Shown: positions 1-62,072, counted from the stretch's first letter. The stretch: 64,000 nucleotides of DNA from Eledone cirrhosa (GCA_964016885.1 OZ024745.1:39122001-39186000); one strand, 5' to 3'. Numbers and translations: made by a program. The notes: generated from the sequence alone by a model not told the origin.

Positions 1-600
1 GTTCCAGCTTATTAGCTATCGTCAACAACGTATACCTTCTTGCCAGATGATTGAACGTCCGAAACTATATACTTTCCTTATGTATATTAACGGCTGAGCA
101 GACTAATTTGCATATCGAGTTGGTTAGTCGGCCGGGTGCACCGAAAACGATAAACGAAAAAATGAAACGAAATTTCATTTCCCACTCTTAGTACGGCTGT
201 TACTTAAATATAAGTATGTGTACGTACATACATATATGTATACAGACGTACAGTAGTATGTATATATATATACATACATGCACACATATATATATGTACG
301 TATGGATTGACCGAACATTTATTATAATGCTCGGTGTGTTTGCAAACAAACATCCCGTATTAAGCCGTAGTGTCTAGCAACCATCATTGCTCGTTTGTTC
401 AACACTGACAAAGGAATGCTGTACTAGTTGCAAGCTTATTAGCTATCGTCAGCAACATATACATTCCTGCCAGATGATTGAACGTTGTTTACAAACACAC
501 CGAGCATTATAATAAATGTTCGTTGAATACATATGTACATATATACATGTGTGCATGTATATATATATATACATACTACTGTACGTCTGTATACATATAT
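1..600 (-). mobile_element. Non-coding PLE-type HHR element, family C (partial tandem plus inverted arm)
   Basis: 150-487 matches 9793-10130, 1-105 repeats part of the unit, and 487-600 is the reverse complement of ~230-350. A minus-strand HHR is present. Confidence 0.65.
416..458 (-). ncRNA. Type I hammerhead, family C (GAAA mutated to GCAA)
   Basis: Reverse complement: atgttg CTGACGA t agct aata agct t GCAA ctag TA cagcat. Confidence 0.6.
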
Positions 601-607
601 GGTAAGA

Positions 608-733
608 ACCCCACGGCTTGAGCTCAGCCGTCGGGGTCCTACCCGTCCCTATTACCCACTCTACCACCCTAACTATTGAGTACTTTGGTGTGTTATGGTC
701 CATCTGGTTCCTTACCACATTTCCTTCGTTATA
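608..733 (+). mobile_element. 3'-terminal fragment of the PLE family at 5075-6897
   Basis: cggcttgagctcagccgtcgggg...acccactctac...ggttccttaccaca...cttcgttatat matches 6780-6897 and ends in (TA)n. Confidence 0.6.
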
Positions 734-852
734 TATATATATATATAGATATATATATATATATATATATATATATATATATATAAAAGACGTAAGATAA
801 GAAAATATTTTAAAAAATACTTTGAAAAATTTTTTTACTTACTTAAATTTTC

Positions 853-934
853 ACTCCAACTAATTAGTTTCTGCAATGGGATAAAGACAGTTACGTAATC
901 CAACTGTCGAGAATTTATTGCGTCATCAGGGAGT
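853..934 (-). ncRNA. Type I hammerhead, family A (inverted arm)
   Basis: Reverse complement of the motif at 1805-1886. Confidence 0.8.
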
Positions 935-1804
935 CTATTCTCACCTGAGTCTCCAGGCAATGCGCGGACACTGGCGGCTCATATAAAAATAATAATAATT
1001 CGGTAGAAAGAACAGCTGGCGAGGACTGAATTCCATGTACTGAAATTCTCACTGCTTCTAGTCAAATGGCCGATTCTAAAGAATCAATCACGTGACACAG
1101 AGGCTAGTTAGAAGTAATGGGATGGTAAGATGACTGACGCCTCCTAAGACCCCAAAAAAATTTAGAAGTGGTTTTGGCAGGTTTGCTCGACAAATCAGTG
1201 ATTTGGAGATAAATATAGATAATTTAATATATCAACTAACATAGGCGCACAGATGCACGTCCATGCCAGCAAATACACAGGTTATGTCATAATACCTAGG
1301 TGGTTCAATGCATAAGGGTGCAGAACAATAATATAAAAGACGTAAGATAAGAAAAAATTTAAAAAAGATTTTTTAAAAAAGATTTTCTTATCTTACGTCT
1401 TTTATATTGTTGTTCTGCACCCTCCTGCATTGAACCACCTAGGTATTATGACATAACCTGTGTATTTGCTGGCATGGACGTGCATCTGTGCGCCTATGTT
1501 AGTTGATATATTAAATTATCTATATTTATCTCCAAATCACTGATTTGTCGAGCAAACCTGCCAAAACCACTTCTAAATTTTTTTTGGGGTGTTAGTAGGC
1601 GTCAGTCATCTTACCATCCCATTCCTTCTAACTAGCCTCTGTGTCACGTGATTGATTCTTTAGAATCGGCCATTTGACTAGAAGCAGTGAGAATTTCAGT
1701 ACATGGAATCCAGTCCTCGCCAGCTGTTCTTTCTACCGAATTATTATTATTTTTATATGAGCCGCCAGTGTCCGCGCATTGCCTGGAGACTCAGCTGAGA
1801 ATAG

Positions 1805-1886
1805 ACTCCCTGATGACGCAATGAATTCTCGACAGTTGGATTACGTAACTGTCTTTATCCCATTGCAGAAACTAATTAGTTGGAGT
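1805..1886 (+). ncRNA. Type I hammerhead, family A
   Basis: actcc CTGATGA c gcaatg..gacagtt/aactgtc..cattgc a GAAA ctaattag TT ggagt. Stem I is ACTCC/GGAGT, stem III is the palindrome ACTAATTAGT, and cleavage is predicted after 1881. Confidence 0.85.
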
Positions 1887-59200: not shown

Positions 59201-60255
59201 TTCCATTACAAAAGATGCACAAAGATACAGCAATGGACTACAAATTTCAGAAGTCCCATTTACTGCTGAAATGGAAAACACAGAAAAAGCAAAGCAGGTA
59301 AAAGTAACTGCAAAGAAAGAACTGCTACAGAAACTGGCTAAGAAATGGCAAGAAAAGCCTCTGTATGGAAAATACCCAGATCGAGCTAACAATCCTGATG
59401 TTGACAAAACATTAACCCATCAATGGTTGGCATCCTCTGGACTGAAATCGGAGACTGAACGACTGATTATATCAGCACAAGATCAGTGTCTGCCAACAAA
59501 AAATTGCCAAGCCAACATAATAAAAAATGGATGCAGCCCATTATACCGTGTATGCAAAAAACAACCAGAGACAATTGACCATATAATTTCAATGTGCAGT
59601 CCTATAGCTCCAACCGAATACCTAAACAGGCATGACAGAGCTGCACAATACATACATTGGATAATGTGTAAGCATTTTGACCTGCCCCATCAAAAGAATT
59701 GGTGCGAGCATCAACCACCTCCCATACTTGAAAAAGATCACATCTCAATCTTGTGGAACTTTAGCATCCAAACAGACCGAAAAATAGATGCAAATAGACC
59801 TGATATAATATTGAAGGACTTTAAAAAGAGGGTATGCCTGCTAATTGATATGTCCGTTCCAATAGACAAGAATGTATCTATAAAAACATTTGAAAAAATG
59901 AGCAAGTATAAGGACCTGGAGATAGAAATTGGAAAAATGTGGAAATTGAGAACTAAAACAATACCAGTGGTTGTAGGCGCTCTAGGAATGATACCTAAAG
60001 AGGTCTAATGATTACTTATCGCAAATCCCAGGAAACCCGCGTATAGGAGAAATACAAAAGATAGTAGTAATGGGAACTGCTCATATACTAAGGAAGATTC
60101 TGTCAATATAAGTACATCACAAGTGTAAACACTAAAGATGCATGTGTGAGTATGTATGTTCTTTCTTGAACATGGCGGACCTTGTTGTCTCTTGAGGTCA
60201 CTGGTTGTGACTTGGTGATAACTCGTATGAACATAAAGCAAGATAAATGCAGCTG
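56300..60255 (+). mobile_element. Full-length R4/Dong-type LINE; single ORF (~56461-60109) broken by stops and frameshifts
   Basis: KWSREDN, WKSPGKD, NYRPITCL, EQKGC, IFQGDSLSPL, HLFYMDDLKL, YKYLG, RVC..ETIDHIISMC, RHD, RPD..D..P..KY.DL. Stops at ~56695, 58263, 58359 and 58617; frameshifts at ~57935 and ~60000; (TAA)n tail at 60256-60303. Confidence 0.95.
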
Positions 60256-60303
60256 TAATAATAATAATAATAATAATAGTAATAATAATAATAATAATAA
60301 TAA

Positions 60304-60461
60304 TTGTTTCCACGTTAGGCACAAGGTCAGCAATTAACCAATGCATTACTGGTACTTTATTTTATCGACCCCTCAAGGATGAAAGGCAAAGTTAACCTCA
60401 GCGGTATTTGAACTCAGAATGGCAAGGGCCGTAACTCTATACGTCAAAGCATGACGTCCGA
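60304..60461 (-). mobile_element. tRNA-derived SINE inserted in the Dong (TAA)n tail
   Basis: Same family as 17831; aataataataat on both sides. Confidence 0.85.
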
Positions 60462-61338
60462 ATAATAATAATACTAGGAATGTATTATTAATTAAAGAAT
60501 CATGAATTCTGTCATATCTACTACAGAGATCCGATTAGCTTTTGATTCCAGAGTGGGGCTAGATCGATACAGTCTGGACCTTGATCTGATCAGTGTCGAA
60601 ACGCACGCCCCCAACCAATAAACGCAACGGAGGAGTAACCATTCGTCCTTCTATTATTATATTACACTCTGTCTAGCTCTACACCTCGATACTCACGGGA
60701 ACTTAAACATCGAGTGCTCAACCAGGTAAACCTACAGTAATTCTGCGTTACACACCCTGGATATATACACACACACACACAACCATACACACACACACTC
60801 ACACACACACACTCACATATATATATATATATATATATATATATATATATATATATATATATATATATATATATGGTTTTTCAAATCCACTGTCAATAAA
60901 GACACCAGGATTTTTTCATTCTGATGAATGTAAGAAATTTTGTTTGCTTTCAAGAAACCACTGTTAGATGAAATAACTATCTTATGTTGTTTATGACATA
61001 ACTATATATATATATGTACATAGATATATATATATATATATATGTATAGGGGTGAATATGTGTATCGATGTGTGTCAGACATCCATTATCCTGTATAAAG
61101 AAGTCAGATCAGAACACAATGCAGTTGAAGCGAGCAAACTTAATCGTCCCAGTCACTGTTACATTTCGGTATCAAGCACTCATTCAGTTAATTTTTCTAT
61201 GTTTTATGTACTATTTGATTTTAAACACCAATTCGATACATATATACACCCCTTGCAAGAGATGGACCTGTTATTTTTATCTAAAGACATTTTCTCCAAT
61301 TCCATTCCCCGGTCCCCTCTATTTCATTTCTCATTATT

Positions 61339-61374
61339 TCTTCTTATGAAAGACTAGCGTACGAAACGTTAATA
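61339..61374 (+). ncRNA. Minimal hammerhead relic, family G
   Basis: tctt CTTATGA aagac tagc gtac GAAA cg TT aata. With 26955-26990 it gives the consensus tctt CTGATGA aggac tagc gtcc GAAA cg TT aaga. Confidence 0.65.
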
Positions 61375-62072
61375 CCCTCTTCCTGCTATACCAAGCGTTA
61401 ACCTAATATAAACCTTCCATATACTGTCCTGATTGTGTCGTTATTTCTATTTACCTTTTACATACATACATACATATATATATATATATATATATATATA
61501 TATATATATATATATATATATATATATATATATATGTATATGTGTGTGTGTGTGTGTATATATATATATATATATATATATATAGGGCTGTTTAAATCCA
61601 CATAGCACATGAAGCATGGACAAATTAACTGAATGGGTACTGGATACCTGAATGTAACAGCAACTGGAAAGCTTAAATTTCCTCGCTTGTGGTCTGATCT
61701 AACTTCTTTATATAGGATAAGGGATGTATGACTGAACGTAGGAAATGCGGGGCTAGAGAAAGAATCTGTGATATAATTACACATCTGTGGGCATGCAACT
61801 ATCATCTAACAAAATCGCATAGTAATACACTAAAAGGAAAATATATTTTAACAAACTGTATATCATTAATTCTTTCAAATACTTTCTATAATGAATCCGC
61901 ACTCTATGAAATAGTCATTGGTTATAATAAAGTCTTAGATAATATAGCACAATGTACTACAGCAACATACCAAAAATCAAGTTGTAAAACACTAAAACCA
62001 TCATATGAACTGTCATTGTGAAACCCATTAAACTACTTCGTAAATACATTTTCAGATCTATATTATCACACA

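Follow-up and report, generated by a model that had tools for sequence, protein, structure and literature searches.

A 64-kb stretch of the 3.0-Gb Eledone cirrhosa assembly (GCA_964016885.1 OZ024745.1:39122001-39186000; hereafter, the window) carries hammerhead ribozyme motifs with unrelated flanks among many (TA)n tracts (GC 34%; simple repeats ≈8% of the sequence), raising the question of which elements brought them there and how they spread. An original prediction had described an ecosystem of Penelope-like elements (PLEs) and retrozymes. Very probably, the window is a pile-up of 5'-truncated PLE copies and non-coding retrozymes, with terminal-repeat hammerheads beside (TA)n, likely inserted by the reverse transcriptase (RT) and GIY-YIG endonuclease of PLEs. 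Observed directly here are the motifs and their families, the fixed placement of D, H, J and M relative to an upstream PLE frame, the fixed 3' ends at (TA)n, the back-to-back layout and the genome-wide counts. The predicted origin was thus supported, but many of the proposed families are end pieces of PLEs, and only families A and B proved to be tandem retrozymes.

Hammerhead motifs and families in the window

Motifs were searched with a descriptor of the type I core (up to one mismatch, with a mismatch at the stem II base also allowed) with three stems and a score of at least 20. It matched 16 sites in the window and none in the reversed window, and the comparison with shuffled sequence that the original prediction had proposed gave a mean of 0.03 matches (maximum 1) over 30 block-wise dinucleotide shuffles. 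The core was perfect in 13 of the 16 matches: five of family A, six of family B, C at 10096 and H at 30474. Except for L, and for J, in which position 4 of the core is an adenine (U4A), the families show the boxes CUGANGA, GAAA and NUH and have stems I-III arranged as in type I. Across families, 22-27 of 28 distinct short-type motifs were paired at 12 of the 13 stem positions tested, with compensatory changes of several pair types in all three stems; at the base of stem II, just 4 of the 28 were paired. This covariation is read across families, copies inside a single family being too alike for it. The hammerhead motifs of the window are real and well above chance, and they are predicted to cut RNA.

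The window copies of D, E, F, G, I, J and K are damaged, and their nearest genomic copies keep the core boxes and stems. In family-level alignments (19 nearest genomic copies each) both boxes and stems were conserved in D, E, F, G, H, J and K. Both boxes were canonical in 50/50 of the copies compared for A, 15/15 for B, 61/67 for C, 44/47 for D, 30/34 for E, 15/21 for F, 18/31 for G, 20/20 for H, 52/53 for I and 51/66 for K. Conservation of core and stems in the family consensuses, which had been anticipated, holds at family level for D-K, J with U4A, and not for L. The two copies of L (24824-24903, minus strand; 25420-25500, plus strand) are half-motifs with the first core box, CUGANGA, and neither GAAA nor stem III; 18 relatives gave no clear three-stem fold, and L could not be confirmed as a hammerhead.

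Eleven of the twelve families originally proposed are therefore real, L having no second half of the core. Their motifs lie at, or within about 60 bases of, the positions given, with C, D (4953), F, G (26955) and K on the minus strand. The estimate of roughly 30 copies also agrees with our count for A-L (37 including partial ones, about 30 full length, most decayed). The list was incomplete: family M, with four copies, and four further families, each represented in the window by one decayed copy, had been missed, and the window holds 16 families (11 named, M and the four others) with about 45 copies including partial ones. An Rfam scan of the window returned no hammerhead among the matches listed (150 of 167), nearly all being microRNA models on microsatellites. 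Other CUGANGA sites (e.g. 14797, 16785, 47894, 62395, 63785) failed every descriptor and had no counterpart among the library motifs.

Family C is present as an intact, classical type I hammerhead with a bulged stem I (10046..10116, minus), a second copy whose second core box reads GCAA (402..472, minus) and a partial third copy (2-45). Back-to-back pairs are formed by E (7203..7514; 7203-7292, minus, and 7435-7514, plus, both damaged) and by I (31739-31832, minus, and 31907-32001, plus, one core mismatch each). F (10245..10345, minus) has an intact core and a weakened stem III; G is a decayed minimal hammerhead with a palindromic stem III (26930..27005, minus; second copy 61328-61391, plus); K (37155-37244, minus), with C3 changed, is accompanied by a partial copy on the opposite strand (37292-37334). 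The four additional families comprise a truncated copy without the first core box (26459..26583, plus), a decayed U3-A8 copy (29903..29952, minus), a further decayed copy (37535..37608, minus) and one with both core boxes and damaged stems (60902..60986, plus).

Penelope-like frames and probable insertion at (TA)n

The two GIY-YIG relics, originally described as remnants of candidate autonomous partners, are both real, but they are broken, 5'-truncated copies rather than functional partners, with stops and without RT, whose open-frame relatives lie elsewhere in the genome. The first (5307..6068, plus), covering thumb, linker and GIY-YIG endonuclease, shares 66% identity with a 784-aa open frame across 255 aa (E 4e-97); the second (7991..8446, minus), an endonuclease frame, shares 43% identity with an 808-aa frame across 167 aa (E 3e-26). 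Pfam gave no match for either relic or for the 784-aa frame. The latter shows DKT, a CxCx5C linker, CxxC and CxH motifs, a C-terminal GIY-YIG and no CCHH, with RWR in place of RWK. The Hydra-clade set is DKT, RWK, the CxCx5C linker, no CCHH, and CxxC plus CxH around a conserved E/N (PMC8557442). The linker also occurs in the PLE frames of families H and J. By these motifs, the relic at 5307-6068 and families M, H and J are classified as Hydra-clade PLEs. The 784-aa frame recurs every 3,531 bp in an array of tandem Hydra PLE units with open frames (stretch L019, G000:C1:437197500-437207499), whose proteins are 99.9% identical, which points to a young family. The 808-aa frame (stretch L260) has a CX4CxxC linker, of the CX2-5CxxC form, and CCHH in its C-terminal GIY-YIG, so that the relic at 7991-8446 and family D are of Neptune or Nematis type. 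Pieces of the Hydra ORF matched 13 of 56 arbitrary 10-kb genome stretches. A weak match to the Hydra PLE RT region (35%, E 1e-5) at 11328-11552 (minus) is probably an old fragment.

Links between hammerheads and PLE frames were searched with two protein queries in 1.5-kb flanks, overlapping loci included. A same-strand PLE frame was found upstream, at a nearly constant distance, of 36 of 58 matches to D (mostly at 230-270 nt), 22 of 42 to M, 10 of 24 to H (460-590 nt) and 11 of 90 to J, eight of these at 840-1040 nt. The hammerheads of D, H, J and M are predicted terminal-repeat ribozymes of PLEs, and for these four the linking of families to PLE ORFs suggested at the outset succeeded. In the window, a decayed D hammerhead (7660..7711, minus) lies 280 nt behind the frame 7991-8446; two more copies are at 4935..5011 (minus, A9 changed) and 24965..25040 (plus, core intact, stems I and III damaged). 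Family M has a compensated U3-A8 core, with 2,177 exact matches genome-wide, a variant known from Schistosoma PLEs (PMC4209133; also PMC3088659). A decayed M terminal repeat, with the hammerhead and tail of the Hydra PLE whose relic lies at 5307-6068, ends at (TA)n (6675..6894, plus); further copies are found at 3979-4098 and 5088-5212 (both minus), and tails at 613-729 and 55004-55121. The H hammerhead (30454..30597, plus), with a long stem II and a perfect core, belongs to the terminal repeat of another Hydra PLE subfamily. Family J forms a back-to-back pair with the U4A core (36314-36393, minus; 36986-37066, plus), with further copies at 25649-25729 (minus), 38513-38560 (minus, partial), 40162-40226 (minus), 40229-40290 (plus) and 43889-43959 (minus).

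The predicted tie to (TA)n was borne out. Of 181 copies from nine families (C-K; copies picked by likeness to those of the window), 164 have a tract starting no more than 200 nt downstream, each family with its own offset, as against 20% of random points; the (TA)n insertion typical of Hydra PLE families is seen here as adjacency. Neighbouring copies on opposite strands face outward in 75 pairs and inward in 8 (10 and 0 in an unbiased sample). Families A, E, H, I, K and M gave 41 pairs in which both ends could be measured, once pairs lacking an end and a single duplicated row had been removed; a hand count found a short end together with a long one in 35 of them. Inverted copies with a one-sided tail have been described for PLEs (PMC8557442), and two internal RT start sites plus a tail in PMC11167929; the short-end/long-end layout may be explained by such start sites.

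Following published PLE work, the endonuclease would nick (TA)n on both strands and reverse transcription would start, downstream of the ribozyme, from two internal positions that are fixed. Each insertion would thus gain a short and a long end, both facing outward; early RT termination would leave mostly end pieces bearing the ribozyme, and every insertion would leave TA tracts as targets for the next. The palindromic stem III of most families predicts cleavage as dimers, and the tandem copies of A and B would likely derive from self-cleaved circular RNA. Most genomic copies are dead.

Several observations weigh against this account. With the same two queries and flanks, no PLE frame was found beside A (0/60), B (0/50) or G (0/34), and frames near C, E, F, I, K and L were only scattered, at unfixed offsets. 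The C pairs are mostly equal-ended (~127/127-150), and the ends of the J pairs differ by just ~30 nt. When seven single motifs were folded at minimum energy, those of A, B, C, F, H and J lacked the active three-way junction, and only the intact M motif formed it. L fails as a complete hammerhead, and expression, cleavage and circles are predictions from the sequence.

Tandem retrozymes and genome-wide abundance

Families A (555-bp unit) and B (457-bp unit) form tandem repeats in which two or more successive units each contain a type I hammerhead, and no frame of 100 aa or more was listed inside either array. By sequence, they are classified as non-coding tandem non-LTR retrozymes, with a predicted circular RNA form. 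The A insertion (785..3756, both strands, TA tracts on both sides) consists of an inverted arm (837-1350, minus, core at 929) and tandem units with cores at 1810, 2365, 2920 and 3475 (plus). The B array (40874..43804, plus, TA tracts on both sides) has 6.3 copies, 99% identical, with six intact cores (41363-43648, plus) and a short inverted arm (40874-40946). Both arrays extend either side of an inversion point, with PLE-type ends. The B ends, at +86 and +191, recur in contigs of an independent run (X2), which finish in (AT)n there; contigs of three runs contain family B, confirming it as sequence only. Exact motif matches are dispersed along chromosomes (1,984 for A, 527 for B), the units of A and B share weak similarity behind the ribozyme, and as circles they fold better than shuffles (z -4.8 and -4.2; 40 shuffles). 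Since A and B have the two-ended layout without a reading frame, they were likely mobilised in trans by PLE proteins. Other tandem retrozyme arrays were noticed at L042:4015-9194, L062:6135-7907 and L064:456-3396, with units of ~310 and 480-490 bp; those of L042 and L062 each extend outward from an inversion point, and that of L064 is a tandem relative of family C.

Genome-wide, three exact core patterns, which do not enforce stems and leave out long stem II families and core variants, matched 125,497, 100,570 and 18,278 times, against 6,050, 5,028 and 712 times in reversed sequence. The excess over control is ~232,000, a 20- to 26-fold enrichment, in keeping with the very large count foreseen. 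The stem descriptor, at a score of at least 15, was passed by 64 of 82 sample matches to the first two patterns. Ninety-six arbitrary 10-kb stretches (959 kb) yielded 145 descriptor matches, in 41 sequence clusters, versus 0 in reversed and 0.7 in shuffled sequence. The stratified estimate is 4.6 x 10^5 (bootstrap 3.1-6.4 x 10^5), a value made noisy, and possibly high, by tandem arrays, with small chromosomes represented by 22 stretches only. The genome carries well over 200,000 hammerhead motifs, with sampling pointing to 3-6 x 10^5. A scan of the 96 stretches for minimal hammerheads found none at a score of at least 20, hence G-type motifs were counted by pattern (18,278 versus 712). Family A was extrapolated to 40,600 but has 1,984 exact matches, so per-family extrapolation is unreliable for arrays; search candidates (37 for L and 666-2,883 for the others by DNA; 57,316 and 19,509 by protein) are not copy numbers. 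Descriptor matches correlate with TA content (rho 0.48 in the 96 stretches), and the window, at 250 per Mb, is above the sample mean of 151 per Mb, not out of line with it. By manual assignment, hammerhead or PLE families account for 17.5 of the 58.9 kb of non-microsatellite window DNA (30%). Derivation of unique sequence from ribozyme-bearing elements is thus supported for this share, to which the original "much" is to be corrected; for half of the DNA outside microsatellites no match was found in the genomic stretches compared.

The density looks exceptional. Published counts are 126,247 for axolotl, more than 6,000 in 16 families for Acropora and ~5,000 for Mytilus (PMC7229834), besides ~9,000 minimal motifs for Xenopus. 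The axolotl figure is the highest printed in the literature portions consulted and is exceeded here in a genome about nine times smaller, although descriptors differ between studies and a highest known count is therefore unproven. The kinds of element are known, namely PLE terminal-repeat hammerheads and non-LTR retrozymes; what sets this genome apart is the sheer number of motifs, the expansion of the Hydra clade, retrozyme arrays that bear the PLE signature and a family fixed for U4A. With PLE pseudo-LTR hammerheads (Cervera and de la Pena 2014, PMC4209133) the motifs share type I topology, short stem I, long stem II, an extra base before stem II, palindromic stem III, the U3-A8 variant, mostly lone motifs from truncated PLEs and opposite-strand pairs; they differ in number (2,000-9,000 per genome there, >200,000 here) and in the fixed U4A family, not found in the accessible text of that paper. 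With Hydra-clade PLEs (Craig et al. 2021, PMC8557442) the Hydra-type elements found here share DKT, CxCx5C, lack of CCHH, a C-terminal endonuclease and (TA)n insertion. Few families are described there, whereas here 13 of 56 arbitrary stretches are hit, with RWR for RWK, a 3.5-kb unit and non-canonical cores in M and J. Like the non-LTR retrozymes (Cervera and de la Pena 2020, PMC7229834; Li et al. 10.64898/2026.07.22.740005), A and B are tandem repeats without a coding frame; each unit holds one type I hammerhead, is poor in GC and pairs with itself, and PLEs co-occur. Their units exceed the 170-400 nt of PMC7229834 and fall inside the 51-972 bp of 10.64898/2026.07.22.740005; distinctive here are PLE-type two-ended insertions at (TA)n. 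A repeat paper on Octopus vulgaris (PMC13282606) reports 31 recently active PLE families, its accessible part mentioning neither "ribozyme" nor "Hydra".

Core variants and the possible part played by cleavage

The core of family J reads CAGAAGA. A 33-mer containing it has 16,133 exact matches, while the versions with U, C or G at position 4, each about equally common, add up to 165, which argues that U4A became fixed while the family spread. U4C and U3-A8 were found in the literature and U4A was not, in an incomplete coverage under which U4A may already be reported. A CCGANGA core (U4C) recurs in 7 of the 145 sample matches (e.g. L031:211, L064:4736, L075:1000) and seems fixed in at least one family.

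Three other explanations deserve consideration. Chance matches in AT-rich, microsatellite-rich DNA might be invoked on account of the short stems, the core or stem damage of several window copies and the failure of L; set against 16 window matches versus none in reversed and 0.03 in shuffled sequence, the 20- to 26-fold pattern excess and the covariation, this is hardly conceivable. Rather unlikely, in our judgement, is that the A and B arrays are local satellites grown from a PLE end piece by unequal crossing-over and not products of circular RNA. A satellite route is proposed in the preprint 10.64898/2026.07.22.740005, where one of nine Xenopus dimers cleaved, and the circular RNA of A and B is itself a prediction; such local growth is opposed by the dispersal of both arrays along chromosomes, by the way they run in both directions from an inversion point and carry PLE-type ends, and by circular folds far better than those of shuffles.

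More weight, as a minority possibility, goes to ribozymes that are real but mere passengers, cleavage being unneeded for spread and the count reflecting a motif in the end piece copied first. Indeed, J reached at least 16,133 exact U4A copies, with U, C and G totalling 165 at that position, catalytic mutants were without effect on insertion in vitro (PMC11167929), and Naiad PLEs spread without canonical hammerheads (PMC8557442). Against it, every family other than J has retained a core that is either canonical or compensated (U3-A8), and stems that covary, over 41 sequence clusters; this speaks for selection acting on the fold where lineages are active. We tentatively propose, at slightly below even confidence, that this is the most hammerhead-dense animal genome described (~1 per 7-13 kb, dozens of families), through an unreported mass expansion of Hydra-clade PLEs in a self-feeding loop with TA microsatellites, and that the U4A fixed in J, whose copies would number tens of thousands, represents either a novel functional core variant or direct evidence in vivo that PLEs spread uncut. 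This genome offers a natural experiment on the role of the hammerhead in PLEs, with young canonical, U3-A8 and U4A families side by side, together with tandem open-frame elements and retrozymes whose PLE two-ended signature supports trans-mobilisation. Rfam scans and standard repeat annotation can overlook hundreds of thousands of ribozyme motifs.

Other repeats were also seen in the window. Long inverted repeats lie at 31288-31459 (91%), without a match in the genomic stretches compared, and at 37817-38124 (83%). A ~180-bp repeat, in which no hammerhead was detected, occurs four times (17826-18010, 21896-22082, 51401-51586, 60292-60482; 80-87% identical). Decayed non-LTR retrotransposons adjoining (TAA)n tracts, at 33029-36125, 56456-60255 and 32226-33114 (all plus), carry an RT (Pfam RVT_1) and a C-terminal restriction-like endonuclease and are presumably similar to R4/Dong; the segment 32226-33114 is 96.5% identical to 59367-60255.

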